From Blasia pusilla (Eukaryota), in NCBI GenBank assembly GCA_050084515.1, contig CM114271.1:31062001-31126000 (forward strand): a DNA stretch of 64,000 bases, written 5' to 3'. Shown in pieces: positions 3,851-58,262 of this stretch. Within the stretch, counting starts at the first letter, position 1. Each line of letters begins with the position of its first letter. The notes under the pieces were generated by a model, which was given only the letters and a program-made list of their open reading frames with translations, was not told the origin of the DNA and made no database searches. Position numbers and translations under genes: made by a program.

Positions 3851-3855
3851 CGAAG

Positions 3856-5010
3856 TTGGCTACTATCGCTGGTATCCAGCATAGATCAAGTTCGGGAGCA
3901 GGGGCTTCCATCTCTTATGGAGGGGATGATCTCTCTTATATGGCGAGTGCAGCACATGTTGAGGCATCAGCTGCAGTTACGAGAGGAGCCACTCAAGCGT
4001 CAGAGCCATGTGGTGCTACTGTGGAGTTGGACCCACAGAGGGGTGAGGCTGGGAGGCAGGCTAGGCTTCCCCAGTCATTCTTGTTGTCTGAGGTGCTTAG
4101 GACTCCATCCATGGTTCCTATGCAGCTTATTGAGCCGACAGTGGGGAGTGAGGCATCTACATCGCGTGTAGTAGACACGGATGCAACATCTAGTGCAGTA
4201 TTGCGGATGGCAACTTCAGTGTTGGGATCTCCATTGTTTTCGGCCACGGAGCTGATGGCTTTAGGAGTTGACTTAGCTCCTGTATTTCAGCTAGCAGCCA
4301 CGTTGTGTGAACGTGGGGATGTTAATGCTACACGTGCTGAGGTGGATGAGGGTGTTGCGGTGGAGCGATCCTCTATGTCAGGTGTAGCATTGCGTACCGG
4401 TGCTACTTGGCAGACAGCAGCGGTAAAGATGGATGCATTAACAGCCCGGCCAGCCATTGATCGTGAGAGGCTTATACCTGGTGTATGTATGTTGGACAAC
4501 CGGAGTGGGATATTCCGATTGGTGAGTCCTACAGGACAGGTGTATAGACCAAATAGAGTCTTGTTAGACTCTGGTGGCCAACCTTTGATGTTGGGAAAGG
4601 CGGCATGTATTGGTTTGGGTATTCGGAGGTCAGAGCTTGAGCCTTGCCCATTCCAGATTCAAACATCACTTGGAGGAGCCAATGATAGGTCTCAATTCAT
4701 GACACGAGAGAAGTTTTCTGTAAAGTTGAGACCAGATCATGCGACTGATAGCTCTCGATTGGGAGTATCTACGGTAGTCACATTAGCTAAGTCGTATGAT
4801 GTACTAGTTGGAGGAGCAGTATTATACCCAATGGGTTTTCAGATGGATTATTGGACTAAGACAGCGTCTTATAGACCTGGTTGGCAGTCCGGGGATGGAC
4901 GTATGAGCCAAGTTCCTGTGAGATTTATTTATGGGGCTCGACCAAGAAGGTCTTCCCCAACAGTGTTAGCATCTGTGGCTGGTTTTAGTGGAGTAGTCAC
5001 TTGGCCATGA
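3856..5010 (+). pseudogene. Aspartic protease region of Gypsy-like polyprotein
   Basis: VLLDSGGQPLM (D-S-G) and YDVLVGGAVL (protease C-terminal motif). Confidence 0.75.
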
Positions 5011-5289
5011 GACTTTTTGGAGGGTAATGTTTCTGCTATGGATTCTCCTATGCATGAGGAGGTAGAGGAGGTCCCTACTTTTGCAGCAGTGGCATCCTTA
5101 TCGTTGGATGTGCCACTTTGGAGTTCAGGCGGTGCACTACGGCAGGAGGCTGATCGCCTAGTGCAGGAAGCTTGGTGTGAAGCTGTTATACCTCACGAGG
5201 AAGAGGAGGCCCCACGGCGGACTCCTACTTCTGGTCCAGTTGGGTTATCCCTATTGGATACTACACCCGGAGGTATGGCAGTATCCGTT

Positions 5290-6250
5290 GGAGGGCATTT
5301 GTGTGTTAGATCTCTTTGGTGGGATTAGCACTGGTTTGGCTGCAGTGTTACAGGCCTGTATTCCTGTGCGGAGATGCGTGTATGTGGAGCGAGATGAGAC
5401 GGCCCAAAGAGTCTCATCCCGACATATTGGTCAGTTGATGCGGAGATATCCTGAGTTGTTGCCGCCATCAGCTATTCGTGGGTAACAGCATGCTTTGCCG
5501 TCACACATTGCATTGTTGGGGGCGCAGGACCTTGAGAGGGTTGGTCCTGTAGATTTGGTGCTTGCTGGATGGCCATGTTAGGGTCATACACGTGCTGGTC
5601 GTGGTGAGGGATTACACGACCCTAGGTCTCGATTGTTTTGGGAGATGTTACGGGTGTTACGACATCTTCAGGTTCATCAGGCACGTGCTCTAGCTTATAT
5701 TCTGGAGAATGTTCCATTGTTGGGTGACACTCGGACCCGGATGATGGCGAGTGTTCATGAGGTGCGGTCTTGGATTGGACCAGCGGTGTTGTTGGATGCA
5801 GCGCGAGTTGGCTTGCGTGCACATCATCCACCCTTTTGGTGGACAAACTTGTTGCCTAGGGAGGTTCTACATCGAGCATATGATGCAGTGCAACGGGATC
5901 CTTGCCTTACAATGGATAGTATCTTGGATACTGGGCGACTTTCTCAGGTGGTGAGGGTTATTGATAGGTCACCCATGGCAGTGGTGAACCGTGTGGGCCA
6001 GCCTAGGATGGCACTACCCATATTTGTGAGTTTTCCCTCGTCACATGCCTACAGGGAAGGTGGTCCCGGGCTTGTATGGGATTCTCATGTGCGACAGTTG
6101 GTGGAGCCTAACGCTGATGAGAGAGAGCGTGCGATGGGATTTGCTACTGGTGTGACAGTGGTTGCTTCCATTTCTGAGGCTTCACGACGTCATGTGTTGG
6201 GTCAAGCCATGGAACTGAATTGTTTGACTTGGATTTTTAGTCTTGGTATG
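5290..6250 (+). pseudogene. DNMT3-like C5 cytosine methyltransferase domain inside the polyprotein (copy 1)
   Basis: Motif I VLDLFGGISTG, II YVERD, IV AGWPC*GH, VI ILENVP, VIII RAHHPPFWWTNL, IX ERERAMGF, X VLGQAMEL, in canonical order. Confidence 0.9.
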
Positions 6251-6619
6251 GCCGAGCAGCGTCAACTTCGGATTATGTCTGTGGGTCTTCCACCCCTTGT
6301 AATGAGCTCGATGGCTACCGGGACGGAAGAGGCATCGGCTGGGGGCGAGGAGAGTAGTATTTTGCATCCTTGGAGTAAATGGGATGTAATGGCTGGGCAT
6401 GTGGAGTTGGTTGCTCATGCTGGTGGAGGAGTTATTTGCTCAGATGATGGTGTAGCTAAGGGTATACCATCTTGTGAGGGGGTCGCGTAGCAGCCAATGG
6501 CATCGTCCTCTCCCTCTAGTGTGCCAGTGGAGGAGACTTGGGAGCCATTACTTGGGCCCAAGCTTACGGGAGGTGAGAAACGACGCTTGATGATGTTCCT
6601 ACGTGCTTATAGGAGTTGT

Positions 6620-7960
6620 TTTTCCTTTAGCATGAAGGAGTTGGGTGCTCTGGTTGGACCCAGTATACGGATTGATTTGGCTAGTGATATGCCAATCTTC
6701 CGTCGTCCCTACCGATATAGTGATATGGAGAGGGACCTGATTCAGAGTAGGACGTTGGACCTTTTGGAGGCTGGATTAGTGGAGTTGTCGCATGGAGAGT
6801 ATGCATCAGCCACTGTCATGCCTGCTAAAAGGATATGCATGGCAACCACACGGATAGGCGGATATGTGGAGATTACCGTCCTATCAATCAGCAAACCAAG
6901 GCTGATAGGTATGCCATGCCTACACCTGAGGAGATCTTTGATGTGGTGGGATAGGCAAAGATTTTCAGTTTTGGATCTTGGCGAGGATACCATCAATTGC
7001 CGATTCAGAGAGTGACAAGGCCAAGACAAAGCATTTTGGGGTGTCAACTCTCATGGCAAGGATTGTTTGTACCGGTGGAAATTCTTACCCTTTGGGTTGA
7101 AGAATGCACTGCCGAGTTTCAGTGAGTGATGGGACAGGATCCTAGCGAGGGTTGGATTTTGTTCGGTGTTACATTGATGATATCTTGGTGTTCAGTAACA
7201 CGGTGGAAGAGCATCAGATACATTTGCAGATGGTGTTTGAGCGGTTGAAAGCTCATGGTCTATGTTTGCATTGAGGAAAGTGTAAGTTCTTCCATGAGGA
7301 TGTTGAGTACTTGGGTCATGTGATCTATCTAGGTGGTTTGGGAGTTTAGCAAGCAAAGGTGGAGGCTATTGCACTTATTCCGCGTCCAGTAGATGTGAGT
7401 AGAGTTCGGGCATTCATGGGATTGGCGAACTACTATCGGAGGTATGTGAAGGGATTCAGTGCTATGGCAAAGCCTTTGAACCAATTGCTGAAATCAGATC
7501 AAGAGTGGCACTGGGGAGATGATCAGGAGAGAGCATTTGTGGAGCTTAAGGCCCAGTTGGTGGCGGCGCCTATCTTGAGGAGACCTATCAGAGGGCGCCC
7601 ATTTCAGTTACACACTGATTGGAGTAGGTTGGGACTTGGAGCGGTGTTGACACAACATGATGATGAGCACATGGAGTTTTTGGTGGCCTATGCAAGTCGT
7701 TCGAATAATGCAGAGGAGTCGCGCTATAGTTCATATGAGGGAGAGTGCTTGGCAAGAGTGTGGGTTGTGGCACACTTTAGGTGTTACTTGTTTGGCACAC
7801 TGAGTTTACCCTTGTTCTTGATCACCGGCCGCTCAAGTGGTTGATGGAGTCTGACAAGCTTACAGGGAAGCTTGCACGGTGGGCTCTTATCTTACAGGAG
7901 TATGACTTCCACGTGGTACATAGACCTGTAGTTGCCAACCTTGATGCTCATGGGTTGAGT
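6620..7960 (+). pseudogene. Reverse transcriptase and RNase H (Gypsy type)
   Basis: PIFRRPYRYS, DYRPIN, LPFGLKNA, YIDDILV (about 7170), FMGLANYYRRYV, LHTDWS, YEGECLA and DHRPLKWL. Confidence 0.92.
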
Positions 7961-8369
7961 AGGAACCCATGTACTAGCCAAGAGGATACAACTGGGGCTA
8001 GATGGCATGGCGAGGTTGATGAGGAGATGGTGCCAGGTTGGCATGCATTCGCCTTTTTATGTTGGTTAGGGGTGGACTCTAGTATGGAGGACCACATCAT
8101 ATCTTACTCTAGTCAGAGGGTAGATGGCCAGCCTTCAGATCCTAAGGTTGGAGATGGTGGTACGGATCAGCGTGATATTCATGATGATGCATTGGTGTTG
8201 GAGTTCCTACGGACCAGTAGGGTGCCAGGCATAGTGAGTGCCAAGGAGCGAGACCGTATTCTTCAACGTGCTAAGAGGTATCGATTGGAGGGAACACATA
8301 TTCTCCGTGTGTGGGAGGATGGTAGAGTACGAGTAGTGCCGCATTTGGCTCAGAGAGAGCGCATTGTGC

Positions 8370-9460
8370 GACATGCCCATGAGGAGTTGGGACATTTTGG
8401 GGTAAAGCGTACGTATAGCTTACTCCTTGGTCAGTATTGGTGGCGTGGCATGCATTCTCAGGTGCAGCAGTTGGTGTGATGTTGTATGGTTTCTGACCGG
8501 GTGAGGGCATCATTCAATGCCCCTACACCACAGTTACACCCCTTGCCTATTATGGGGTTGGATTACCGTTGGAGTGTGGACTTTGCGGGACCGTTACCGT
8601 TGACTGTACGACATCATCGATATGTGTTGGTGATGGTGGAACACTTCTCCAAGTGGATTGAGTTGGTGGCATTACCGGACAAGGAAAGTGAGGGAACGGC
8701 GCGTGCGTTTCTTGATAGAGTGCTTAGTCATTTTGGTGCACCCATCAGCTGAAGTGTTGAACGACCAGGGTACAGAGTTTCAGGGTGAGTTTGAGGTCTT
8801 GTGTGACAAGGCGTTGATTGATCATCGGACTACGTCTCGAGATCATCCAGAGGCGGATGGTTTGGCTGAGCGTGTGGTTCAGACGGTGAAGAGGGCATTG
8901 CGCAAGTATGGCCTCTGAAGGGCATCTTGGAGACAGGATATTCGGTTGCCATGGTTAGCCATGGGGTATAGGTTCAGTCGCCAAGCATCCTTGGCTTCCT
9001 TCTCACCTTATTTTCTGTTATACGGCCAAGATCCAGACTTGCCAGCAGCAATTCGTCGGGAGTCTAGTGAGGTGGTGAACCTTGATGACCCAGAGATGTG
9101 GATGAGAGTGTGTTCTCAGCGGGCGAGCTCTTTCGGAGAGTTATGCCAATGACCTTTGAGAATCTTGCCATTTCTTAACACAAGGATACGTTGCGGTATG
9201 CAACCATTCGGGGTGGAGGTTATCGACCATCGATTTGTAGGTTCCATGTGGGGGACTATGTCTATTTGCAGCAGATTTCATTGACAACGTTGGATGTGAC
9301 GGCAGGCCGCACTATTTTACGAGTGCGCGAGGTGTTAGCTTCTGGAGTTCTCATGTTGGAGGGTCGTGATGGAGTTGTTTGGAAGGACCATGTGCGTAAT
9401 TGTGCGCCATGTCATCTTCCAAATGTGGATGGTACTGTTGACCCAAGCTTAGCCATGATA
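8370..9460 (+). pseudogene. DDE integrase (HHCC, rve core, C-terminal extension)
   Basis: HAHEELGHFG, WSVDFAGPLP, VEHFSKW, DQGTEF, HPEADGLAERVVQTVK and SPYFLLYG. Confidence 0.92.
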
Positions 9461-9469
9461 CATGCTAGC

Positions 9470-9612
9470 TTGAGGTGCATGTTGTGTGGGTCTGCTTGCA
9501 ACGCACCGTATGTTGGTGTGTGATGGTGTTCTAGGGGTTGGCACATTATGTGTTTGACTCACGTATGGATGTTGTTCCTAGTGGAAGGTGGGTTTGTCCT
9601 CGATGTACTTAG
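9470..9612 (+). pseudogene. PHD finger at polyprotein C-terminus
   Basis: Across frameshifts: CMLCG..MLVCDG(C)SRGWH.MCL...VPSGRWVCPRC, the C4HC3 pattern. Confidence 0.8.
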
Positions 9613-9780
9613 GAGAGGTAGATGACTTGATCTTTGCATGATATGGAGGATGTGCGACTAACGATGGGGCAACCTAGCACCCGGCCTTCGATTTGCACCC
9701 AAGAAGGTGTATAGCATGTAGTAGATGTATAGGGCTACTTGGGAGTTAGAAGGACCTAACCGCCAGTTAGGGGGGCGAGT

Positions 9781-9884
9781 TGTGGTACACTTGTGTTTGT
9801 GGATGCTCTCGTGTATATTATGTATGTATGTGAGTATGGTATGTCAACGATGTATGTTGTATGACGATGTGGATTCGCACGACA
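9781..9884 (+). repeat. 3' terminal 'B' repeat of copy 1
   Basis: TG...CA segment directly after the PPT. Its 3' part (GATGTATGTTGT...CGCACGACA) matches the B repeats at 47243-47378, 47862-47997 and 58127-58262. Confidence 0.8.
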
Positions 9885-11803
9885 AGTTACACATCCAGTT
9901 CATAAATTCATAAATGAAGGTTTCCTTGCAACACATCATGCATATATGATGACTACCCTTCAAGAGCAGGAGCCGAGTTATTTTGAAGAAGCTACAAGTA
10001 AAGCCGAATGGATTGAAGCTATGGAGGAAGAGCTTGTTGCATTAAGACATCAACAAACATAGGAGCTTGTTGATATACCTTCCGGTAAGGAAGCTATTGG
10101 TTGCAAATGGGTTTAAAAAATCAAGCGCAATCAAGATGGTACAATTAATAGATACAAAGCGAGATTGGTGGCTAAGAGCTATGCACAACAATATGGTATC
10201 GATTATGAGGAAACATTTAGCCTTGTTGCAAAGATGGCGACTACGAGAACAGTGCTTGCAGTTGCAATAAGTAAGAAGTGCAGATTACATCACATGGACG
10301 TCAAGAATGCCTTCTTGAATGGAGATCTATACGAGGAGGTATATATGACTCAACCACCTGGATACGAGCATCCCAAGTTTCCATTTCGCGTATGCACGTT
10401 GAAGAAAGCTCTATACGGGCTCAAACAAGCTCCAAGAGCTTGGTATGGCAAGATTACATACGTCCTACAAGAGTTGGGTTTTAGGGTATGTGATTCTGAC
10501 TCCTCATTATATGTCTTGAGAGGAAAAAATCATACAGTTCTCATTGTGTTGTATGTTGACGATCTCTTGATTAGTGGGAGTACTGAAGAAATGGTAAAAC
10601 AAGTCAAGCTTAAGTTACAAGCAGAATTTGATATGAAGGACTTGAGAGAACTCAAGTACTTCCTTGGTATTGAGTTTATCAAGGTTGGAGAGAGCATGTG
10701 GTTACTACAACGATAATATGATCTTCATATGCTTTCAAAATATGGTACGACGACTTGTAAGCCAATCTCTACACCGTTGGACCAAAGCGTGAAGCTAAGA
10801 GTGGATCAAGGAGAGCTGCTTGCAGATTCTAATATATACAGGTCCATGGTTGGAAGTTTGATCTATATAACTATAACCAGACCAGATTTAAGCTATGTTG
10901 TTGGCCTGGTGAGCCAGTTTATGCAAGCACCTCGAAACCTCACCTTCATGCTGCGAGGAGGATTATGCGGTATGTGAAATTCTCTATTCAATTCGGGCTT
11001 CAATTTGAACCTTCTCCAAGTTTTCAATTACAGGGATTCATAGATGCTGATTGGGCAGGAAGCGTGTCTGATCGACACTCCACATCTAGTTATTCATTTA
11101 CTTTGGGAAGCGCAACTATAAGTTGGGCTTCAAAGAAGCAACCTATAGTTGCTTTATCTTCAACAAAGGCTAAGTACATAGGAGCAACCAATGCAGCATG
11201 TGAGGCGGTGTGGTTTCATCGATTACTTGTTGAGATTGGTGTTAGTAACTTAGGACCTAGTGTAATATATGCAGACAATATTAGTAGCATCAAGCTTGCT
11301 AATAACCTTATGTTTCATGCTCGTACAAAGCATGTTGAGGTGCACTATCATTTTATAAGAGAGAAAGTGCTTGCAGGAGAAATTGATCAGCAAATTGCTG
11401 ACATCTTTACAAAGGTATTGTCTAGAGATAAGTTTGAGATGTTTAGAAAGGATTTAGGCGTTAGAGATATCGATATGAGCTTGAGGGGGAGTATTGAAGA
11501 TTGAGTTACAGTCAAGCTCATGAGACATCTGAAGTGCTATATTTGGCACTCACACGAAGTAGGGAAGCTTAATCTTCGTTAGTCAGTTAAGCACGATTAT
11601 CTTAACCAAGGTTAGTTAATCACAGTTAGGCTAACTCGAGACTATGGTTAAGGATAGGGTTGGGGTTGCTTGTACATACCCTATATAATTTAGAAGAGGA
11701 CCAGCCTCCACTCATTCTCTCATTGCAAATTTTGTTCTCCATGGTGGTGTGTGTGTGTGAGAGCCGTTTTCCACCTGTTATGCTTGTTTAGCAATTTTCC
11801 ACA
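9885..11803 (+). mobile_element. Ty1/copia retrotransposon 3' part: RT, RNase H, PPT and 3' LTR
   Basis: GIDYEETF, MDVKNAFLNG, LKKALYGLKQAPRAW, YVDDLL, DADWAG, RTKHVEVHYHF and ADIFTK. PPT GAGGGGGAG at 11483-11491. Confidence 0.92.
11492..11803 (+). repeat. Copia 3' LTR (probable)
   Basis: Follows the PPT, starts TATTG (likely decayed TGTTG), contains TATATAA near 11682 and ends CCACA where Helitron homology begins. The 5' LTR lies outside the window. Confidence 0.65.
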
Positions 11804-36379: not shown

Positions 36380-37700
36380 CTCATGGAAATATCCCTTAGC
36401 TCTTATTATTAAACCTCACGGACTCTCATATGCATGTTGAGAGACTTGGGTTACACACTCACAAGATGAGAGGATCATAATTCCGCTTCTTTATGAAAGG
36501 AGGCTCAACAAAGAGAACAAGTTTCCAAGCTCTCTCCCCTTGGATATATCGTGCATCCTCTCTCTCTCCCTCAGCCCTCTACCTGTTGAACTATGCATAT
36601 ATGACACCTCCTGAACCCTAACCTACAATAGCGGATGAAAGGACACTTTCCTCAAATAGAAAGTCAATTCTATATGGAATAAGGAATCTACCCAAAATGG
36701 CAAGTTCTAGAAATAGCTTCAAATAAGCCAAAAACAAGGAGGAGCAATATACCGGGGCTATCCTAATCCTCAACATATCGTCCTCAACCTCTTAAGATTG
36801 ATGTGCAATCTTCCCAAATGTGCGGCACACCTGCTCTATAGTTACACAAAAATGGATATGTCCATGGACATGGATTGCCAAATGTGAAACCCACACTTAT
36901 AGTTCATGATGAAAGGTGAGGCAAAGGTGAGTGGTGCAATAAGGGGGGAGAAAATGGAGGTGGAGAGAGGAAGAAACCGGAGAGATGGAAGACGAAAGTA
37001 AGTGAGAGGGGGGGATGAGAAAGAAGAAGAAAGTGGGGCCCATATGGAAAAGTCCTTCTATAGGACGGACATGGACCTTGTCCACATGCAACCTTGAGCT
37101 ACTCTCTATGCCACTAGAAAGAACGTGATAACTATTGAACACATACACATAGCTACATAATATAACATATATCGTTATCACTATATATACACTCTTAAAT
37201 ATAAGACACCATACCCAATCGTGGAGTTTACACACATAGACAATCACATAGGAAAAAGATCTCAAATCGTCCCTTTAACTTATGATAAGATCCTTGAAAC
37301 TTTAGATAGCCATCTATCCATTCCTACTCATATGACATACATCTTTATAATGCTAAGAGAATTTTTTTTCAAGATGCTCATATGGCTCCATCATTAATCA
37401 CTTTCTTGTCATCAATGTCATTCAAGAAAGTCCAAAACCATAACTATATATCCTATGTATATCTAAGACATATCCATCGTGCTTGATGAAATCTAGTGAG
37501 AGGTAGCGTCAAACATGCCATGTGCTACCCTTTTGAGCATCCATCATGATAAACCAGCATGGTGGTTGTATCTCTGGTAGATCCACACGATATACAATGT
37601 AAAAGTGTAGGTACCATTGCCAAATTTGGATCAATTGCATGTCCTATCAACATTAGGAAGATGACATATGTATGGTGTGAATTGCATAGTCATATGGATG
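36380..37700 (-). mobile_element. Decayed 3' end of a Gypsy-like copy: IN C-term/PHD - PPT - B1 - A2
   Basis: About 37500-37680 aligns with the IN C-term/PHD. PPT-like TTAAAGGGACGA at about 37268-37279, B-like 37133-37266, 2-bp spacer, A-like ending at 37130. Confidence 0.6.
36837..37096 (+). mobile_element. hAT-type MITE inserted in the A repeat
   Basis: Homologous to 39661-39990. Flanks ACCTGCTC / AGCTACTC (6/8 match, decayed TSD). Confidence 0.65.
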
Positions 37701-39362: not shown

Positions 39363-40311
39363 TGTCATACGCATACAGATTGCTACACAATATATATTGT
39401 TGTCACCGAATACACATACAAGATAGTATACTGACTCATGACATCGAGACGATTGAACACCAAAATATCTCCAATTAAATCAAAATCTCTCACAATGTCC
39501 TCACAAATCCATCTATCTCTCATTTCAAACCAAACTTATTTTCCTAATGAGAGCTTTGGGTTACTCACAAGGCAAGGAGAACCATAGTTCCGCCGCCTCA
39601 TGCCAAGAGGTTTAACAAAGAGACAGTGAGAACCAAAGTTCTTTTTCCTTGGGTATACCCCATGGTTACACAAAACCGGACAAGTCCTTCCTTAGGACAG
39701 ACGTGGATGGGTAAGTCCGGATATGTCCACAAACATGGATTCCAAGAGGTAGGACCCACACTTATAGTCCATGATGGAAGGCAAGGCAAGGATGAGTGGA
39801 GCAATGAGGGAGGAAGGAGTGGAGGTGGAAGGAGGAAGAAACGGTGGAGTATGGAACACGAAGGCAAGTAAGGGGAAGGAGAAAGAAGGGAAAGTTGAGG
39901 CCCATATGGACAAGTCCTTCCATAGGACGGACATAAGTCCACCGACATGGACATGTCCACGGATACAGACTTTGTCCACATGCGACCTTGGTATACCCCC
40001 TTCCATCTCCTAAGCTCTCTCCTTGGTAACCTATGCTTGCAAGTCACCTTCTTGGTTCTTGACTTGTTGTAGGGAGTCAAGGGCCACTTACAAAAGTAGA
40101 AATTCCACTCTACTCATAACGATAACTTGCTCAAAATAGTAATTTTCTTTATGGTAACCTATAGCTCCAATGAGCCGAAACGAAGGGGAAACTTGCTCTC
40201 TTAGGTTACTCGAGGCCGCAACAAGTTATCCTCAACCTCATGAGGATGTTCTCCAATATCTTTGAAGGTGCTCTATTATAAACTCATTTATGCATCCTAA
40301 AAGACGTAACA
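39363..40311 (-). mobile_element. Solo A-B unit with 4-bp TSD (TCTT)
   Basis: TCTT|TGTCATACGC...GACGTAACA|TCTT. It interrupts the RT sequence GAGGAGATCTTTGAT. The minus-strand 5' end is A-like and the 3' end is B-like. Confidence 0.85.
39661..39990 (+). mobile_element. hAT-type MITE with 8-bp TSD GTATACCC
   Basis: GTATACCC|CATGGTTACA...TGCGACCTTG|GTATACCC. Absent from the homologous A repeat near 18300. Confidence 0.85.
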
Positions 40312-44856: not shown

Positions 44857-45789
44857 CGAATCCATTCTAGTACGAGCCTACTATAGTTCTGATATTCTGC
44901 ATTGGCGTATGTTTGGCTATGAGGGTTGCAAAAATTTAGGTAGCTAGTTGATAATGTCAAGTTAATATGATATGTGCTATTTGGAGTTAAGGGAACCAAT
45001 TTCCAATTAAGGGGACGATTGTGTGATCTTGGTATATATACATGAGTGTATATATTTTTGTATATGAACAGATCTAATCAGGAGATGGAAAGATGTGATT
45101 AACAATGTAGATTGTTTAGCAATGTGTATGGGTATGATCGTTTCACATCATAGTTAGATGAAATGTAGAGTTCTACTCTGTCAATGATGTAGAGAGTTAA
45201 GGGATTTTTCGAGCTTAACTTAATTGTGAAGAGTCAGATGAGATTGGAAACCACTCTGTAGCATCGGGGTTGTAGTTTTAGAAAACCTTCTATTTTGCTA
45301 TTTTGATATTTTGGGCTAAGAAACCTATTGATTGAGTCAATTATTATTTAGTAACTTGTGTGGGTCGAGGTGTGGGTAGGTTGCCATTTTTGATTATTTT
45401 TGGGGGAAGAGCTCTTTTAACTCTTCTCAAGGGCACAAAGGTGAGAGGGATGAGTGACTTTCACAAGCTATCTTTCTCATATATATTGAGCGTTTGTAGT
45501 GCTCATCTAGTTAGGGTTTTGTAGGAGGTTGAGCACTAAAGTTAAAGTTCCCTTATGCAATAGGCCTAATGTGGATATGATATTCATGTGTAGTTTCAAG
45601 GCTAAAATTTGATGTATGAACCATTTTCACTTCACTTTTGTTTTGTGGTCTTGGTATGCATGAGTGAATTTTTTTTTTGTATGGATCTACTTGTGTGTTG
45701 GGAAGATCAATCATGATGTTTGTTGTGTAGATGTGACCAATGATGTGAATTTTTTAGCAACGTGTATATGCATGATAATAGATGTCTAA

Positions 45790-47242: not shown

Positions 47243-49497
47243 TATCGTGCGCATACACATTGCTACACAACACACATCGCTGGTCACATCCACACCACAC
47301 AACACCGATCTTCCCCACACACGGGTAGATCCATACATCTACAAAAATCAACTCATACATATACATCGAGATCACACAACAAAAATAAGAGTAGTAAACA
47401 ACGGCACATCCAGCCTAAAACTCCATTCCTCAATCTACATTGGCATATTGAGCCTTGTCCACCCTATGCTCTCAGGAAATCCAGACGCTAGCACCGTGGT
47501 CCTATCTCACACACAACAAGAGAGGTGCTTCAACGGCCCAACATTAGAAAGATGGCTTTCCCAAGCCATCTTCCTCCCTTATATAGGGTTGGAAAGATCC
47601 AAAAGGCTCTTCCCCTAAAAATAGCTATCCTCCTTGTAACCTACGCCCATAGGTTACCAGGGGCGGGTGACTTGCTCAACATGTGACCCGGCTGTGAAAG
47701 ACCTCAATAGGAAAGTTGGCAGAAATGACATTCTTGACACAACAGACCTATCCTCAACCTCTTCCGACACCTAGGGACAAAGTTACACTCAAGATAGTTT
47801 GTTGGCTCCTATGCCCTATCCACCATAGATCTCGGCCTATCGACTACTTAGATGTGACAGCTGTCGTGCGCATACACATTGCTACACAACATACATTGCT
47901 AGTCATATCCACACCACAAAATATCGATCGTCCCTACACACGGGTAGATCCACATATGTACAGAAATCAACTCATACATATACCTCGAGATCACACAACC
48001 GCCCCCCTAATTGGCAGTTGGATCCCTCTAACTCCAAATAGAAAATATCATATCTCCCTAACATGACCTACTATCCTACACACATCTTGGACATATCCAT
48101 TGTCCCATGGGAACTACATCAAGAGGGGGAAGGGATCAGACATGATATATGCCACCCTCGAGAATAACCATCACATACCAACATGGTGGCTGCATCCCTC
48201 CCAAATTCGCATAACATACACCTCAAGCCTGTAGGTACCATTGCCAAGCTCGGATCCACTGTCCCGTCCACATTCAAAAGGTGACATCGCGCACAGTTGC
48301 GCACATGATCCTTCCAAACCATACCATCCCGTCCCTCCAACATGAGGACTTCGGTCGGTAATACCTTGCGCACACGTAGGATCGTGCGCTATGGATCGTG
48401 CGCCATGCAGTGACATCTAGCATCGTTGGTGCCGCTTGCTATAAATACACGTAATCTCCATGATGAAACCTCCTAATCCCTCGACGATAACCTCCTCCAT
48501 GAATGGTCGCGTCCCTCAATGTATCCCTATGCTGAGCAATAGCTAAATTCTCAAAGGCCACGGGCATATATAGCTCTACAAAAAATCATCTCCGCCCTCT
48601 GAGAACATGCTTGTACCCACACATGGGGATCGTCAAGATCTAACACCTCCACCATGTCACGTTGAATAACTGCAGGTAAATATGGCTCTCTCCCAAAGAG
48701 CAAAAAGTATGGTGAAAATGACGCCAAGGATGCCTGCCGACTAAAGCGATAACCCATAGCCAACCATGGAAACTATAGGTCCCACTCCCTAAACTTTCCC
48801 TGCTGCAAACAATACTTGCGCAATCCTCTCTTCACCGTCTGTACTACTCTCTCCGCCAACCCATCTGCCTCACAATGATCTATGGATGTGGTGCGATGAT
48901 CTATGAGCGCTGATCATTCAAGGCCTGAAACTTCCCCCTGAACTCGGTACCTTGGTCAGTCAACACCTCCGCCGGTGCACCAAATTGACGAAGCACACGA
49001 TCTAGAAATGCATAAGTTGTTCCCTCGCTTGCCTTGTCCGGTAGTGCCACCAACTCTATGCACTTGGAGAAATGCTCCACCATGACCAACATGTATCTGT
49101 GTTGACGCCCCGTCAATGGCAAAGGTCCCGTGAAGTCTAAACTCCACCGATAACCTAAACCCATAATCGAAAAAGGATGTAATTGGGGAGTGGGAGCATT
49201 GAAGGATGCTCGCACTCGATCACATACCATACATCTGGCCACAAACTGATGTACCCCAATATGCATGCCGTGCCACCAATACTGAACTTGGAGTACGCTT
49301 TACTCCAAAATGCTCCAACTCCTCATGAGCATGTTGCACTACACGTGCTTGTTGAGAAGGATGAGGTACCACTTATATCCTACCATCTTCCCATATCCGC
49401 AAAATATGAGTCCCCTCCCACCTGAACCTCCTAGCTCTTTGTAGGATCCAATCCCCCTCTCTAACACTCATTGTGCTCGCTATGACGCCATAGGATA
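47243..49497 (-). mobile_element. 3' part of a Gypsy-like copy: IN-PHD-PPT-B1-GC-A2-B2
   Basis: Integrase/PHD ORFs at 48119-49497, PPT TTAGGGGGGCGG at 47999-48010, B1 47862-47997, spacer GC at 47860-47861, A2 47381-47859, B2 47243-47378. Confidence 0.9.
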
Positions 49498-49857
49498 AAT
49501 GGTTAGAGATTTTGCCTGCAGCTCTTCCAACTCCCGTTTCCCTTCCAACTCTCTCCATTTTGAAGATAGACTCCGAGATTTACCCTTTGATGTGAAGAGA
49601 AATATCTTCATGCGGGTTAGGCCGATCTCTTTATTTGAGAGGATTTCCAACTTACCATTAGCATGCAAATTGAAGATATGCGACTTTGCAAGCATGCATT
49701 TCTTGGAGTGACACTGGGCAGATCGCGCAGCTAGTTGGCAGTTCCATGCATGCACTAGACATCTTTACGTTAGATGGTTAGATTTTGTTATGGTGCATGA
49801 GGATTGCTACTCCATTCTTGCATGGTTGATGTTAGGGGTGGCTCGGATTATCAATAT

Positions 49858-50334
49858 TGTCACATCTGAGTAGCCGATAGGCCGAGATCTATCGTGGATA
49901 GGGCGTAGGAGCCAGCGGACTATCTTGAGTGTAACTTTGTCCCACGGTGTCGGATGAGGTTGAGGATATGTCCATTGTGTCAGGAACATTGTTTCTGACA
50001 ACTTTCATGTTGAGGTCTTTTACAGCCGGGTGACTTGTTGACCAGGTCACCCGCCCCTGGTAACCTGTGCGTGCAGGTTACCAAGGGGAGGGCTATTTTT
50101 AGGGAAAGAGCCTTTTGGCTCTTCCCAATCCTATATAAGAGAGGAAGATGGCTTTCCTAAGCCATCTTTCTCATGTTGGGTTGTTGCACCTCCCTTGTAT
50201 GTGTGTGAGCTAGGACTAGGGTGCTAGCGTCCGGATTCCTTGATAGCACAGGATGGACGAGACTCGATATGCCAATGTAGATTGAGGAGTGGAGTTTTAG
50301 GCCGGGTGTGCCATTTTTACTACTCTTTATTTTT
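49858..50334 (+). repeat. 5' terminal 'A1' repeat with TATA box and hairpins
   Basis: Matches the reverse complement of 47381-47859 along its length. TATATAA at 50132-50138. Confidence 0.88.
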
Positions 50335-51489
50335 ACATGAGAAAGATGTCAGGGGGCTGGTGGGAATTCGTTGTTTGCAGGTAGGCAAGCGAGTTGCCTT
50401 GGTCGGGCGCCCCAGGAGACGCGTGTGTTGCGGGTGTTTTTCATTTTTATGTTCGGAAGGCCGTGGGCGGAAGCGATGTCCGTTTTTCTCAGATTTTGCT
50501 GGTACGGATTGACGCGAGACAACAGCCGAGTGTAGTGTGTGGTGGAGCGACGGGTGTATGTGAGTGAGGGTGTCGAGAGAGAGAAGAAAAGAGAGCGACG
50601 GCGCGCATGGCGGACGGAGCAGCAGCGGCGGCGGGCGGCGGGCGGCGCGCCCCCTCCCCCTCCCCGCCTCTTCCCCCAAGGTGGGAGGCACGCATAGGAC
50701 CGTGCGCCCCCCCTCTCTCCTCTCTCCTTCCGCAGGCAGGCACGCAGGGAGGCCACGGGCCGGACGGCCCCCCCCCCCCTCCAACGTGGTAGGACGGAGT
50801 AGGGTCGATCGGTGTGCAGTTGTAGCGAACGTGGTAGGACGGACGAGGTCGGTCCGGTGAACGCGGTTGCGCATGGGCAACGTGATGGCAGGGAGGATGT
50901 CGATGTGGTGAGTGACTGACATAGTTGGACGGCGGGCGTGACATGATGTTTTGGGGCACGAGAGGACGTTGCGAGAGTTGACGATGGAGGGGCAGCGTGC
51001 ACGATGTTGACGGGTTGTCCGCATCTGTTGACGGGAGGATCGACGTGTTGGTCGAAGAGAGTGTTGTGTTGCGGAGGTTGTCATATCATGTAGAGGAGTG
51101 CATGTTGACGGTGCAGCAGGTTGGAGGGCGTGATTAGGTTATCCATTCAAGTTCCTTTTCCCGCACTTGTCGTGTGTGATTGAGAGTGCTAGGTATCGGG
51201 TAGTAGCTGGTGCTAGGTGGGTGCAGTGATGGTGACGAGTGTAGATTCTTTTCATGTATAGCATGTTGGTGGATATACGGCGGTTGCCGAGTAGGGGTCG
51301 CATGTATGACCTGAGAGAGTGTCGCTAGGTTAGGTGAGTCAGTTGGGAGGCTCATGGTGAGCCCAAGTGTTGAGCGTGCGTGAGGCCGGGTATGTCATCA
51401 CGGGATTGATGTTAGCATAGGTGAGCTAGTGAGGCGTGTGGGAGACTCTCGGTGAGTCTGAGTGCTTGAGCGGGTGAGACAGGGTTTGT

Positions 51490-54102
51490 CATCACGGCGT
51501 TCTTTCAGGGTTCGGAAGAACGGGGTAGTGAGAGTAGTAGTAGTGGTGTGACACGGAGCGGAGTGAGATACTGAGGGGTTACCAGTGAGGAGCTACCTCG
51601 ACATCCATCCGTGGCTGGATCGTCATCACTGGACACTGGGTCTGGTGACGAGATCACAGACAGAGACAATAGTACTTGGCAAGAGCTCGACGACATGGGC
51701 CACCGGGGCATGCGTCGTTTCTCGGATGCAGTGGGCACCATCCACTCAGATGATTTTATCTAGGAGTTCAAAAAATGGTGCGACTTCCAGGAGATACAGA
51801 CCCACCCCGACACGATTCAACCCTTTCATGGCATGGAAGGGGTTGTTCCAGCACTTGGAGGGTCCTCCGATGGATGACTATATAGAGTTTCGATCAATAT
51901 ATTCAGTAGAGATCGATGCCTGGAGGATGTATTGGGCTCCAGGGTATGTGTCCACTAGTGGTCGTGAGGCATATGATGGGATTGTGAGAGGAGAGAGACC
52001 CACACCATCAGCCCGGAGACTAGATGGAGAGGAGGGCAGTGAGACAGGCGATGTGGCAGAGACCTCTGGTGGTAGAGGGCCACCCAGCTTCAGCCCCACA
52101 GTGGAGTTCTTCCGAAAGTTGGGGAAGAGCTACCAGAGCATACGCACCGAGAAGCTGAAGAGTCTACAGGATTTTCAGTGACGATCGGGTGAGAGTCTGA
52201 GAGAGGCATTCACACGCATGAGGAGGCTGATCATTGCTACGTTTGGAGTGAATGAGGCGCAGTGAGTCCAGTATTGATACGCGGTTTTGGACCGAGAACT
52301 ACAGAGGAGAGTCCGAGATGCGGTGCTGATTCACACAGCGAAGCCCACATTGAAGGTGGTCTCTGAGCGTATTGAGCTCAACATGAGTGAGGAGTAGGTA
52401 GTGACCGCTGGATTTTCTCGAGAGTTGACAGGTCCACAAGCGACGGTGACCCCACAGGTGCCACAGCGAGCACTTGTACCACGGGAGCGGGCCAGTGTGC
52501 CTAGAGAGCAGGGCGGGTACCGTGAGCCTATGAGGCAACGACCCACACCTACATATGTTGCCCAGCAGGGACCGATGTGGTCTTGTTGGACGTGTGGAGG
52601 GGCCCACACATCCAACAAGACCATAGGCAGAGAGACTGCCCACAGCATGGGAGAGGACCACCAGCGCCTACGATTGCTCAGGGGCCATAGAGGATGGCCC
52701 CACCACAGTACCAATGTGACCATTGCCACAGATATGGTCACACTAGGGATAGATGTTTTGACCTTCGCCGGGGGCATGTCGAGGTAGGCCGAGGGCCTGG
52801 GGGGCGTCGTCTGGAGGAGGTCGGGGAGTTCTTCCTGGGGCGTGGTGGTAGAGGACCACCACCAGCCAGAGGAGATGGAGCACAAGCACGGAGCGGCACT
52901 TCTCTCACGCATCAATCGGTTGGAGCGGAGGATTGCTGCCATGCGATGATGCGGCTTAGGAATGCACGGAGCTCTGGCGACTAGTGTGACTCAACTTCTA
53001 CCTCTTACCCCGACCGGGTGAGGATCTCTTGATATGGGATTTATGTGTAGTGCAGCCCAGGTTGAGGTGCAATGGTGACTCGGGAGTCTTTGCGAGAGGC
53101 ACCGAGCCATGGAGAGGTGGAGTTGAGATTGACCCACCAGAGGGGACCGATGGGCGGCAGGCTAGGGTTCCACAGTCGTTCACATTATCGGAGGCACTAC
53201 ACACACCATCGATGGTGCCTCGACGACCAGCGGTGCCTACAATTCAGGCACCTACGTCGACGTCACGAGGAGTTGGAGTGACAACTCCTATGCCGGCTCG
53301 AGTGGAGTCAGTTTTGACCATATTGTTGGAGGTGGCCACCAGAGTGAGTCACACTCCACTATTTTCCGCCATAGAGTTGGCGACGTTGGGAGTTGGACCA
53401 GCTGAGGTTGGCCGCCACGTTGTGTGAGCGTGGAGAGATGACTGCTTCTTGTTCAGAGGTAGTTGAGGAGGTGGTGGACTTGCCCTCAGAGCCGGTGCTT
53501 GGGACGTTCCCCATAGAGTTATGGCATGCGGCGGCGGCGAAGTTGATAGATATGCTAGCTCGACCGACCATAGAGCGAGCAGTGGTGACACATGGAGTAG
53601 TGTTACTGGATAACCGAGCTGGAGTATTTCGCTTGGTTAGTCCGACGGGGACAGTATACCACCCGCAACGCGTCCTACTTGATTCGAGAGCGCAACCCTT
53701 GATGTTAGGGAAGGCGGCGTGTTAAGCGTTGGGGTTACGGAAGGCCGACATTGAGCCTTGTCCCATCCAGATACAGACCTCGATTGGGGGCGTATCACCC
53801 ACTCAGTATATGACTCGCAGAGATAGTTGTCGAGTCAGCGAGCATCGACGGATAGTGCTATGGTGCGCACACGTGCGATTACGACACCAGCTGAGTCATA
53901 CGATGTGTTGGTGGGGAGAATAGTGTTATATCCCCTAGGATTCATCCTTGACTTCTGGGAGGGGACCGTTGCTTATCGGCCAGGATGGCGGTCACGTGAC
54001 GGTCGGATGAGTCAGTTACTGGTGCAGTTTGCGAGACGAGGTGGTCGATCACGAGGCGAGTCTGTGACCACGTTGGCAGCTTTCACAGGTAGTGTTAGCT
54101 AG
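51490..54102 (+). pseudogene. Gag (two zinc knuckles) and protease of copy 2
   Basis: EKLKSLQDFQ, CWTCGGAH, CDHCHRYGHTRDRC and VLLDSRAQPLM. Confidence 0.82.
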
Positions 54103-54393
54103 CCAGGAGAGTTGTTGGAGGGGAACGCACATGCGGAGGATGTCCCAATAGCGGATAGTCCCACGGAGAGACAGGCCATGGCGGGTGTCTCTTCCCATGT
54201 TGGCGAGGCCTCTTCACCATTGTGGGGTACGACTTGGGAGCTACAGAGGAGTGCCGACGACCTCGTGAGGCAGGCGTGGAGTCATGTTTTTATCCTAGAG
54301 CAGCGAGAGTCACGTGGCGATCGAGCTCTTGGAGTGGAGACGTTGACCCCACTAGATACCACACCTCTTGTGTGGCACTGCCCAGAGGAGGGT

Positions 54394-55350
54394 GTTAGGG
54401 TGTTAGATCTCTTTGGAGGGATTAGCACCGGATTGGCTGCACTATTGCAAGCGGGCATACGGGTGCATCAGTACCTTTATGTGGAGAGAGATGAGACTGC
54501 GCGGCGAGTATCATTACGTCACGTGGCGAGATTGGTCCAGAGGTATCCTGAGTTGTTGTCGGTATCTCTGATGCAAGGGGATACCAAAGATACGCTACCC
54601 GCCGACATCTCTTTGGTGGGGGCGCAAGATCTGGATAGAGTTGGCACCATTCATTTGGTGATTGCTGGATGGCCATGTCAGGGTCATTCATCAACTGGCC
54701 GAGGATTTGGATTGCAGGATCTGAGGTCAAGGATGTTTTGGGAGATGTTGCGAGTATTACGACATTTGCAGGAGAGTCAGATATGTTCTCCAGCATACAT
54801 TTTGGAGAACGTGCCGTTGTTGGGAGACACTCGTGCACGTGTGATGACGAGTGTACATCAGGTGAGGTCTTGGTTGGGACCTGATGTGTTGTTAGATGCA
54901 GGGAGAGTTGGGTCACGTGCCCATCGTCCACGACTGTGGTGGACGAACCTCATACCATCAGAGGTATTGAGTCGAGCATACGGTGGAGTCCAGAGAGCAC
55001 CACATCTCACAATGGATGCTATTTTGGTCTCAGGGCGTCGATCTCAGGTGGTGACAGGTGGTGACACGGGATGATAGACCACCGTTGGCCATGGCCAATA
55101 GGGTGGGGGAGTTGAGGGCAGCCTTACCTACGTTGGTGAGCTTCCCATCATCCCATGCCTTTCGTCAGGGAGGGCCAGGCATGATTTGGGATGAGGTGAC
55201 CGGAGCATTGGAGGAACCTACAACAGATGAATGCGAGCGCGCCATGGGGTTCACTACCGGTACTCTGGCGGTGCCAGGGATGACTGAGGCATCACGGAGA
55301 GAGGTGTTGGGGTAGGCGATGGACCTCAACTGTCTCACATGGATAGTCAG
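54394..55350 (+). pseudogene. DNMT3-like C5 cytosine methyltransferase domain (copy 2)
   Basis: VLDLFGGISTG, YVERD, ADI, AGWPCQGHS, ILENVP, RAHRPRLWWTNL, ECERAMGF and VLG*AMDL. Confidence 0.93.
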
Positions 55351-55759
55351 CCTAGGTATGGCTGAGCAGAGACGGATGCGAGTGTCATCCATGCCGTCAC
55401 GTCCACGAGTTGGACCATTGCCTACAGGGTTTGTACAGGCATTGGATGGGGGCGAGACGAGGAGAGATAGGCACCCATGGACTTCCTGGGACGTCGTTCG
55501 AGCAGAGAGTGCGAAGGCGGCTAGAGTAGCACATGTTCATTTTTCGGATGTGGAGCATGGTGTAGGAGGTCAGAGTGGAGTGGCTGTTGCGGAGATGGCT
55601 AGGGTTGCTACATAGCAACCAAAGCCGGAGGTTGCGTCCTCTTCGAGTGAGGTCACGATGGAGACTTGGGAGCCTGTGATAGGTCTCAAGTTGATAGGAG
55701 GAGAGTGATGGCGAGTTCATAGGTTTCTGAGAGGGCATGTCAGTTGTTTTTCCTTCAGT

Positions 55760-58124
55760 ATGAGAGACTTGGGTACGCTGAAGGGTCCCGGGATACGGAT
55801 TGAGTTGGCTAGTGATACGCCGATCTTTCGTCGACCCTACAGGTATTCTGATATGGAACAAGCCTTGATTCAGAGCAGGAGTCAGGACTTGTGGAGTTAT
55901 CACATGAGGAGTATGCATCTGCCACAGTCATGCAGGCGAAGAAGGATATGTATGGCAATTGGACGGATAGGCGGATGGGTGGAGATTACCGTCCTATCAA
56001 CCGACAAACGAGGTCAGATCGGTACACCATGCCTACTCCTGAGGAGATCTTTGATGCGGTAGGGCAGGCAAAGATCTTCAGTACTTTAGATCTCCATGCT
56101 GGCTATCATCAACTTCCTATCAGGTTGGAGGACAGGGAGAAGACAACATTCTAGGGGATAGATCGGTTCGGGAGAGATTGCTTGTATCAGTGGCGGTTCT
56201 TACCATTTGGGTTGAAGAACGCACCTGTAGAGTTTCAGAGAGTGATGGATAGGATTATGGCTGGCTTGGATTTTGTACGATGTTACATAGATGATATTCT
56301 TATCTTCAGGTCCACGATTGAGGAGCATGAGCGACACTTGGAGGAGGTGTTTCGGCGATTGCAGTTACATGGACTGAAGTTACATCCATGCAAGTGCAGA
56401 TTCTTTCAGGAGCAGATTGAGTACTTGGCACACACCATATACCCGAGTGGGTTAGGCGTTCAGCAGACGAAGGTAGAGGCTATTGCGCAGATTCCACGCC
56501 CTACAGATGTGAGTCGAGTCCGAGCATTTCTTGGAATGGCAAACTTCTATCGACGGTATGTCAAGGGTTTTAGTGCGATCGCAAAGTCTTTGACCTTGTT
56601 GACGAGACTTGATCAGGTGTGGTTGTGGGGAGATGATTAGGAGCGAGCATTTCAGGAGCTCAAGGACAGGTTGACGTCTTCACCCATTTTATAGAGACCG
56701 GTTAGGGGTCGCCCATTCCGATTACATACGGATTGGAGCATGTTGGGTCTAGGAGCAGTGCTTACTCACAGGGATGACGAGGAGAGGGAGTTCATTGTGG
56801 CTTATGCGAGCCGATCAAACAACATTGCAGAGGCGAAGTACAGCTCCTACAAGGGAGAGTGCTTGGTTGCAGTGTGGGCCGTGGCACATTTTAGGTGCTA
56901 TTTATTCGGCAATCCTTTCACACTTATCACTGATCATCAGCCGTTGAGGTGGTTGATGGAGTCCGACAAGCTTAGGGGAAAGCTTGCCAGGTGGGCTCTA
57001 TTACTACAAGAGTATGAGTTTGAGGTGGTTCATAGGCAAGGTCGGCTGAACCAGGATGCGGATGGATTGAGTTGTAACCCATGTCCGAGTCAGAGAGACG
57101 ACACAGGAGCTCGATGGCACGGAGAGAGTGATGAGGAGATGGTGCCGGGTTGGCATGCATCTACCTATCTTTGTTGGTTGACTATAGCATGTCAACCACA
57201 GGTGATGACTCCTGTGGTGGGGTTGGATGATGAGTCTTTGGATCCGGAGGTTAGTGAGGAGGCGACAGGTGGTCGTGATATCCATGACGACGTGGAGGTT
57301 GTGGAGTTCTTGCCCACTGGCGTCATTGCGAGTATAGTGAGTGCTAGGGAGCGGAATCGGATCCTACAGAGAGCCAAGAGGTTCAGGTGGGAGGGGACTC
57401 ACATTTTGCGGGTATGGGGAGATGGTAGGATACGAGTGGTACCTCATCCTTCCCAGCGAGCACGTGTAGTGCGACATGCCCATGAGGAGTTGGGACATTT
57501 CGGAGTAAAGCGTTTTACTTACTCCAGGTTGATATTGGTGGCGCGGCATGCATAGTGGGGTACAATGTTTGTGGCGGATGTATGGTATGTGACAGAGTGC
57601 GAGCATTCTTCAATGCTCCCACTCCGCAGTTACATCCTTTGCCGATTATGGGTTTAGGTTATCGGTAGAGTTTAGACTTTGCGGGACCTTTGCCATTAAC
57701 AGGGCGTCATCATAGGTACGTGTTGGTCATGGTGGAGCATTTCTCCAAGTGGATATAGTTGGTGGCACTACCAGACAAGGAGAGCGAGGGAACAGCTTAT
57801 GCGTTTCTAGATCGTGTGCTTAGCCACTTTGGTGCATCGACGAAGGTGTTGATTGACCAGGGTACCGAGTTCAGGGGAGAGTTTCACGCCTTGTGTGATC
57901 AGGCGCTGATAGATCACCGCACCACGTCCAGAGATCATCTTGAGGCGGATGGGTTGGCGGAGAGAGTGGTACAGACGGTGAAGAGAGGATTGCGCAAGTA
58001 TGGCTTGTTGCGGGGACAGTTGAGGGAGTGGGACCTACAGTTGCCATGGTTGGCTATGGGTTATCGCTTTAGTCGGCAGGCATCCTTGGCATCATTTTCA
58101 CCGTACTTTTTGCTCTTTGGGAGA
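55760..58124 (+). pseudogene. RT, RNase H and integrase of copy 2
   Basis: DYRPIN, LDLHAGYHQ, LPFGLKNAP, YIDDILI, TDHQPL, HEELGHFG, DQGTEF and DGLAERVVQTVK. Confidence 0.93.
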
Positions 58125-58126
58125 GT

Positions 58127-58262
58127 TGTGTGATCTCCATGTATATGGATGAGTTGATTTTTGTACATGTGTGGATCGACCCGTGTGTGGGGAAGATCGG
58201 TGTTGTGTGGTGTAGATGTGACGAGCGATGTATGTTGTGTAGCGATATGTATGCGCACAACA
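58127..58262 (+). repeat. 3' terminal 'B' repeat of copy 2 (136 bp)
   Basis: Highly similar to the reverse complements of 47862-47997 and 47243-47378. Confidence 0.9.

Follow-up and report, generated by a model that had tools for sequence, protein, structure and literature searches.

Copies of a Ty3/gypsy-DNMT retrotransposon in Blasia pusilla carry split repeats and a candidate internal integrase site

Results

Element copies and coding domains

The 64,000-nt stretch of Blasia pusilla DNA analysed here (GenBank assembly GCA_050084515.1, contig CM114271.1, positions 31,062,001 to 31,126,000 of the forward strand), hereafter called the window, contains several copies of a Ty3/gypsy retrotransposon, which codes for gag, protease (PR), C5 DNA methyltransferase (DNMT), reverse transcriptase (RT), RNaseH, a DDE integrase (IN) and a PHD finger, in this order, and carries DIRS-like split repeats. 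The repeats are made up of two units, A (138-139 bp) and B (479 bp), and a short palindrome located where the two meet within one of the copies, E2, is proposed to be an uncut integrase site. The unit names are those of a first-pass annotation of the same DNA, which had used the plus strand. E2 is coded on the minus strand, and unit orders are given here along the coding strand; the palindromic junction reads identically both ways.

The census of copies was based on the window, on 80 loci (designated by L and a number), which an alignment of the DNMT region retrieved from public metagenome contigs, and on contigs of four public runs. The family is present at high copy number in at least two organisms, with 20002, 1357, 2118 and 6831 contigs in the four runs.

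In E2 the genes are followed by a polypurine tract (PPT, TTAGGGGGGCG) and then by A, GC, B and A, after which the flank begins. The internal A unit (47862..47999, minus strand; A2 of the first-pass annotation) directly follows the PPT and is 87-90% identical, by BLAST, to 47245-47380 and to the reverse complement of 58125-58262. The 3' B unit (47381..47859, minus strand; formerly B1), which includes a TATA box at about 47579-47586 and a predicted self-primer at about 47541-47554, is 85% identical to the reverse complement of 49858-50334. With the terminal A unit (47243..47380, minus strand; formerly A1) the element ends at 47243, next to unrelated sequence. The decayed integrase of E2 (48119..49299, minus strand) displays an H2C2 zinc finger, an rve core in which the D, D and E residues are visible, and a C-terminal PHD finger. 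The latter (PF00628) takes the place of a chromodomain and was detected with E-values of 0.0026 in the window (48119-48388, minus strand) and 4.4e-10 in L046 (9722-10072).

A second copy, E3 (49858..58262, plus strand), has the form B-genes-A and is enclosed by the target-site duplication (TSD) ATAT (49854-49857 and 58263-58266). Its B unit (49858-50334) contains a TATA box (TATATAAG, 50133-50140) and a predicted self-primer (50163-50176), and is followed by the primer-binding site (PBS, 50335-50348), by an open reading frame (ORF) for the DNMT (54103-55074), by RT (55852-56640), RNaseH (56695-57555) and rve (57759-58133), and by A (58125-58262). The ORFs of E3 match DNA_methylase, RVT_1, RT_RNaseH, Integrase_H2C2 and rve; the last four domains are found in Ty3/gypsy order in E3, E1, E2 and L046, and in L046 the order extends to DNMT-RT-RNaseH-rve-PHD. 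The protease motif and a CCHC knuckle were recognised by eye only. The DNMT ORF (plus strand; PF00145, 9.4e-9) lies between protease and RT and carries FGG, PCQ and ENV motifs. Its relatives, 49-69% identical, are named from Marchantia, Calypogeia and Sphagnum, and some of them combine PF00145 with RVT_1 and RNaseH. Judged by its domains and named relatives, the element is probably a bryophyte-type member of the Gypsy-DNMT3 elements. A tyrosine recombinase (PF00589, Phage_integrase) was searched for in 46 ORFs and proteins, and no match was found at E<=0.01.

When compared with E2 at 58125, E3 turned out to lack 688 bp (48000-48687 of E2), comprising the integrase C-terminus, the PHD finger and the PPT. 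The deletion ends exactly at the boundary between the PPT and the unique 3' region (U3), between GGGAGA|G and GGGGCG|G, and points to either a template switch or a deletion by microhomology.

Further copies are more fragmentary. The decayed copy E5 (plus strand) retains a 3' block PPT-A-GT-B-A (45007..45777), followed by flank, in which the PPT (45007-45017), A (45019-45139), the spacer GT (45140-45141), B (45142 to about 45643) and a terminal A ending with GATA at 45777 can be told apart. E6 (minus strand) is marked by a decayed junction, GTGATA-AC-TATTGA (37125..37138), next to which an A unit and a reverse-complement PPT extend over about 37139-37275. A solo B-J-A unit of 949 bp (39363..40311, minus strand), where J is the joint between B and A discussed below, lies inside the RT gene of another copy, between duplications of TCTT (39359-39362 and 40312-40315). 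E1 (700..9896, plus strand) is about 70% identical to E3 and has a 5'-truncated B unit; its recognisable parts are the self-primer (819-833), PBS (995-1009), PPT (9767-9777), A (9780-9884) and the A-B junction (9881-9890). The 5' B is short by about 70 nt, and a TGTC at 700 is coincidental.

E1 is contained within a Ty1/copia element (window positions 1-699 and 9897-11504), the left part of which is integrase-like and the right part of which includes RVT_2 (10117-10716); these two copia parts do not continue one another. In the copia integrase region a stretch of 162 bp is duplicated in tandem (105-266 and 295-456).

Order of the repeat units

Self-comparison of the full elements L021, L046 and L067 revealed a pair of B units about 8.7-10.6 kb apart and a pair of A units about 450 bp apart, which enclose the second B. 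The split-repeat order written A-coding-B-A-B in the literature was found in these three full copies, in the 3' blocks of 6 further loci, and in E2 and E5 of the window. Mapping of the L046 units on all loci yielded 15 distinct 3' ends. Nine have the form PPT-A-NN-B(-A), complete in L005, L021, L046, L053, L063 and L067 and partial in L013, L018 and L048=L051; in the other six (L014=L022, L015, L024, L030, L033, L044=L068) PPT-A is followed by flank.

All 19 5' ends detected in the loci, which correspond to 18 distinct insertions (L045 and L046 share their flank), start with the B start TGTCATGACC or with a one-base variant of it, after unrelated flanking sequence. The mirror form, B-J-A-NN-B-genes-A, was found at none of these 19 5' ends, against the 9 of 15 3' ends which show the observed form. 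Two identical terminal long terminal repeats (LTRs), bearing the attachment (att) dinucleotides TG..CA at their ends, are not what the copies display: the 5' terminus consists of B only, the 3' terminus of A-NN-B-A, and the TG/CA termini are found within the stretch that PPT and PBS delimit. Long direct repeats were not seen in the distant DNMT loci L058, L059, L064, L072, L075 and L078-L080.

Internal junctions and spacer

The palindrome GACA-GC-TGTC (GACAGCTGTC, 47856-47865) separates the internal A from the 3' B of E2, and is composed of GACA (47856-47859), GC (47860-47861) and TGTC (47862-47865). BLAST comparison of the region against the window placed the end of B at 47859 and the beginning of A at 47862, with GC between them, so that the two TG...CA termini noticed in the first-pass annotation, head to head across a 2-bp spacer, do mark the limits of the units. 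The exact 10-mer occurs only once in the window; with up to one mismatch it has 3 matches against 1.42 expected, and the motif is not significant by itself. Its weight derives from its position between B and A and from its recurrence. The two decayed equivalents proposed along with it, the E6 junction and GATC-GT-TTCA in E5 (45136-45145), are both in register with the junction at 47860, and a fourth, weaker window junction, GACA-AG-TTAC, is found in E1.

A search for the A-end motif in window and loci detected 27 sites, of which 9 are followed by 2 nt and then by a B start, and 18 by unrelated sequence. These nine, with E5, E6 and the deleted junction of L048=L051, make up 12 distinct internal A-to-B junctions, 4 from the window and 8 from independent metagenome loci. 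The spacer between CA and TG measures 2 bp in 11 of them; in the twelfth, L048=L051, a deletion extends across the junction. Of the junctions from the 80 loci, seven have the form GACA-NN-T(G/A)TC. The spacer is GC in E2, L005, L013 and L046, AT in L021, L053 and L067, GT in E5 and E6 (coding strand), AC in L063 and AG in E1. The first-pass annotation expected a spacer that does not vary at random among copies, and its length is indeed constant; its sequence is not. All variants other than AG are transitions of GC within CAGCTG, and could have arisen from deamination at CHG sites.

Contigs of the public runs beginning to match exactly at 47862 were 29 (run X1), 51 (X5) and 266 (X6). Their upstream letters are heterogeneous (agreement 0.35-0.38), and 47862 is therefore considered a true terminus. 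Other contigs, 18 (X2), 19 (X5) and 55 (X6), cease to align with the B unit of the window at 47850/47854, some 10 bases short of the junction. The unaligned upstream letters of these contigs resemble each other (agreement 0.70-0.83) and are read as a diverged B which continues across the junction. Alignments apparently skipping 620 bases, or containing backward joints, were rejected as real forms, being produced by switching between the two A copies.

In a second organism (B, run X6) the last ~50 bp of A (47863-47913) are covered by contigs at very high summed depth, and the B unit is almost uncovered. Because of this difference, the end of A seems to be kept across species while B turns over.

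Target-site duplications

Perfect 4-bp duplications are found outside TGTC...ACA in 7 of the 8 testable copies: ATAT in E3, TCTT at the solo unit, TCTC in L021, AAGG in L046, AATC in L067, CACA in L018 and TTCA in L044. In the remaining copy, L015, CTTA and CCTA match at 3 of 4 positions. E1 was left out of this count on account of its truncated 5' B and non-contiguous copia flanks. The duplications flank the whole B...A unit, not its parts, and the junctions are therefore not chance adjacent insertions with TSDs of their own, a possibility which the first-pass annotation had raised.

Priming signals

The PPT of E2 (TTAGGGGGGCG, 48000..48010, minus strand) abuts the start of A, and an identical 11-mer is present in E1. 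Either TTAGGGGGGCG or CTAGGGGGGCG immediately precedes A in E1, in E2 and in 11 of the 12 loci listed.

At the other end of the genes, the sequence of E3 from the first base after B onward (50335-50348) is the perfect 14-nt complement of 50163-50176, located about 25-30 nt downstream of the TATA box; this extent of complementarity was reached by none of 2000 shuffles. A different 15-nt pair is found in E1 (819-833 and 995-1009) at the same spacing, and the change of both partners amounts to covariation. In about 11 of 18 loci, the PBS has a complement of 10-17 nt at a distance of 155-176 nt on its upstream side, and a TATAAAG-like motif precedes the complement; in the three youngest loci the complement is 17 nt long. 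In all 16 loci listed, among them two degenerate copies, a PBS adjoins the 5' B; L006 is truncated right after CAC. In E3 a candidate tRNA-type PBS, TGGTGGGAATTCG, lies some 22 nt past B; it was dropped, as the self-primer pair starts right after B and covaries in E1. Complementarity, covariation and distance from the TATA box thus predict a layout of the self-priming, Tf1/sushi type.

A short hairpin spans the predicted transcription start in E3 (50142-50172), E2 (47546-47576) and E1 (807-833), its downstream arm being the self-primer. Contigs from other copies carry the hairpin loop inverted (TTGGGAA vs TTCCCAA), with loose ends at 47563.

The joint between B and A

A PBS directly after B and a PPT directly before A imply, by the standard model of reverse transcription, that the LTRs of the cDNA would be A-GC-B. 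The boundary between B and A in the inserted copies would then be the end-to-end joint (J) between the unique 5' region (U5) and U3. In E2 this boundary lies at 47380..47381, where the U5 end of B (..TTATTTTT) is directly joined to the U3 start of A (GTTGTGTG..). The joint is precise (..TTTTC|AGTTGTGG) in E2 and in 5 of 7 loci. That of L018 contains 10 nt of PBS sequence and 5 nt of filler, and that of L021 contains 17 nt, 11 of them copied from U5 sequence close by, together with 2 nt from the PPT side. Read-ins of PBS or PPT sequence and fillers are known aberrant classes of retroviral 2-LTR circle junctions, which these variants resemble. A U5|U3 joint is contained in every full copy, and J is read as a true end-to-end joint of the cDNA. 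As J lies outside the predicted RNA, every cycle would have to form it anew.

These positions bear on the origin of the palindrome, which the first-pass annotation had regarded as the circularisation joint. PBS and PPT place it inside U3, where it would be templated by the RNA at each cycle; the joint is rather the B|A boundary, at 47380/47381. The circle-based route itself fared better, insofar as cDNA with joined ends is indicated by the U5|U3 joint of the full copies.

Other features of the window

An uninterrupted ORF of 545 aa coding for a hexokinase (22432-24069, minus strand; Hexokinase_1 7.8e-70, Hexokinase_2 2.3e-78) lies within a GC-richer island, and is either a host gene, intronless over this span, or a retrocopy. 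A fragment of a PIF1-like helicase (11761-12351, plus strand; 6.3e-11) is possibly part of a Helitron. A pair of inverted repeats of ~320-390 bp (24968-25287 and 28368-28754; 76% identity) encloses a GC-rich stretch.

Discussion

Proposed integration route

The palindrome is interpreted here as an internal, uncut recognition site for the integrase of a bryophyte-type Ty3/gypsy-DNMT element, whose inserted copies would be circular permutations of the cDNA; a probability of roughly 0.6 is assigned to this interpretation. According to it, a full copy would read, on the coding strand, TSD-[TGTC..B]-PBS-gag/PR/DNMT/RT/RNaseH/IN/PHD-PPT-[A..GACA]-GC-[TGTC..B]-J-[A..GACA]-TSD. Transcription would start about 25-30 nt past the TATA box, within B (in E3 at 50161-50163), and the first 14-17 nt of the RNA would be complementary to the PBS immediately after B; the 3' end of the RNA would fall within the 3' B. 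Ordinary reverse transcription would produce a linear cDNA with A-GC-B LTRs, in which the palindrome would be located 113-139 bp inside U3. The outer ends of this cDNA would be joined, U5 end to U3 start, to form J, either before or after strand transfer. The integrase would cut after CA, on both strands, at the palindrome of the PBS-proximal LTR, leaving recessed CA-3'OH ends with 2-nt 5' overhangs, which would be inserted with a 4-bp stagger. Integration by a DDE enzyme had already been put forward in the first-pass annotation; it is compatible with the coding content of the element, which includes a DDE integrase and no tyrosine recombinase, and cleavage after CA on both strands would fit the termini.

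Several points weigh against this interpretation. The evidence is a footprint in inserted copies, and extrachromosomal DNA, the transcript start and the poly(A) site were not observed. All the copies seen are decayed, hence without an intact integrase. A symmetric joined circle, with its two identical palindromes, should open at either of them, and a cut at the PPT-proximal one would yield the mirror form, yet this form is missing from all the 5' ends; the process must therefore be directional, and the choice of the PBS-proximal site requires an extra assumption. Speculatively, the PBS-proximal LTR might be the first to become duplex and capture the only intasome, or J might be made by a jump of the plus strand onto the released A fragment. 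Moreover, 6 of the 15 distinct 3' ends pass from A to flank, without B-A. Such B-genes-A copies may represent double cuts, products of 1-LTR circles or the outcome of later A x A recombination; both these and the solo B-J-A units could have been formed either at insertion or by later recombination. Finally, in retroviruses the cleavage of 2-LTR junctions by integrase is considered to play a minor part in vivo.

A broader claim, that a streptophyte Ty3/gypsy lineage moved its att sites from the LTR ends to a U3 palindrome and depends on cDNA with joined ends, always opened at the PBS-proximal LTR, has about even odds.

Alternative explanations

The alternative which survives best, although unlikely, dispenses with ligation and has J made by polymerase. 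After a cut at the palindrome of the PBS-proximal LTR, completed first, the plus strand would jump from the U5 end to the released A fragment or to the U3 end, giving a linear precursor, B...A-GC-B-J-A, whose CA ends are correct, and never a covalently closed circle. The directionality observed, with no mirror forms at the 19 5' ends, would follow directly, and the 17-nt filler of L021, with its 11-nt copy of U5, has the look of a templated insertion typical of polymerase switching. Host end joining yields the same fillers too, however, and an internal site would have to be cut on linear DNA; ligation and template jumping are not separated by the data.

The model of the first-pass annotation, taken literally, assumes a symmetric circle, either a 2-LTR circle or one with abutted ends, cut at either palindrome, the palindrome being the circle joint itself. 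TG/CA half-sites, the 2-bp spacer and 4-bp duplications are in agreement with it, and retroviral integrases do cut LTR-LTR palindromes. It is nevertheless improbable, as PBS and PPT put the ends of the cDNA at the B|A boundary rather than at the palindrome, and as the mirror product it predicts is found at 0 of 19 5' ends, against 9 of 15 3' ends for the observed form.

Far less credit can be given to a conventional LTR composed of B+A, with the extra A-GC and the missing 5' A resulting from nested or adjacent insertion or from rearrangement after insertion. B+A is indeed bounded by TG...CA and exists as a solo unit with its duplication (39363-40311). The same order, however, is found in 4 window copies and in 9 independent loci of diverged subfamilies, no PPT precedes B and no PBS follows A, the PBS stands beside the 5' B in all 16 loci listed, and duplications surround the whole unit only.

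TG...CA ends and 4-bp duplications, found in 7 of 8 copies, are not known to be made by tyrosine recombinases. They contradict a DIRS/Ngaro-type route, in which insertion of a closed-circle cDNA would fall to a tyrosine recombinase, encoded in cis or provided in trans; as the ORFs of E1, E2, E3 and L046 contain rve and no Phage_integrase domain, this is the least probable explanation of all, in spite of the split direct repeat order A1-coding-B1-A2-B2, which is Ngaro/PAT-like according to the legends to Figs. 1e and 4c of PMC5890265.

Implications

If the interpretation preferred here, i.e. the opening of end-joined cDNA at an internal palindrome, is true, the inserted copies record the use of that palindrome by a DDE integrase. 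Such a route has been under debate in the case of retroviruses since the 1980s and mostly counts as marginal. Under the broader claim, the lineage would represent a natural and obligatory version of the abandoned model in which the circle is the precursor of integration. It would also be a case of convergence with the split repeats of DIRS elements and the circle junctions of IS3. Younger relatives, in bryophytes for which genetic tools are available, make the model directly testable. For annotation, LTR finders which expect two equal terminal repeats will mis-annotate such elements. The A1/A2 and B1/B2 pairs could be used to date insertions, if both were identical at insertion, as the model implies, and J would be a scar of each insertion, reporting how cDNA ends are joined in plants.

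Comparison with known systems

The repeat architecture has already been published for KnitGypsy-Dnmt3 of Klebsormidium nitens, described in the legend to Fig. 4c of de Mendoza et al. 2018 (PMC5890265) as DIRS-like repeats with Gypsy domains, in the order A-coding-B-A-B, and the element studied here belongs to that kind. Both have a Gypsy-type Pol with a C5 DNMT inside; they differ in that the nearest proteins of the present element are those of Marchantia, Calypogeia and Sphagnum, at 49-69% identity. A 2026 preprint cites KnitGypsy-Dnmt3 as 'streptophyte Gypsy-DNMT3'. In section 9 of PMC5890265 and the other passages covered there is nothing on termini, spacer, duplications, PBS/PPT positions or mechanism. 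A literature search likewise returned, in the parts of the sources covered, no account of termini, spacer, joint or integration route, and no description from bryophytes.

The LTRs of Tf1/sushi and Tcn1 elements are of the ordinary kind, the att sites being at their ends, in contrast to the present element. These elements are similar in that their own RNA, and not a tRNA, provides at its 5' end the complement of the PBS, self-priming being also predicted for the Tcn1 elements of plants, as reported in the pertinent passages of PMC6317226.

In retroviruses, the circle was reportedly seen as the precursor of integration in an older model, known as that of Panganiban and Temin. The integrases of PFV and HIV-1 cleave the palindromic LTR-LTR junction, according to the abstracts of PMC1180852 and PMC1905944. 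As proposed here, a DDE integrase thereby generates 3'-processed ends from a palindrome consisting of two att half-sites. Retroviral circle junctions also contain insertions derived from PBS or PPT, as do the U5|U3 joints described here. In retroviruses, however, the palindrome itself is the ligation joint, 4 bp separate CA from TG, and the route is a side one, whereas in the present element the palindrome would be templated in U3, the spacer is 2 bp, the route would be obligatory and the ligation joint would fall at B|A.

Ngaro/PAT-like elements share the order A1-coding-B1-A2-B2, an internal junction made of abutted termini and an implied cDNA with joined ends; they use a tyrosine recombinase and produce no target duplication, unlike the present element, with its DDE integrase, TG...CA ends and 4-bp duplications. 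In bacterial insertion sequences of the IS3 family (IS911-type), the ends are abutted, with a short spacer of fixed length between them, and serve as substrate for a DDE enzyme, as proposed for the junction described here; these are DNA transposons, in which the junction is made by the transposase and reverse transcription plays no part.

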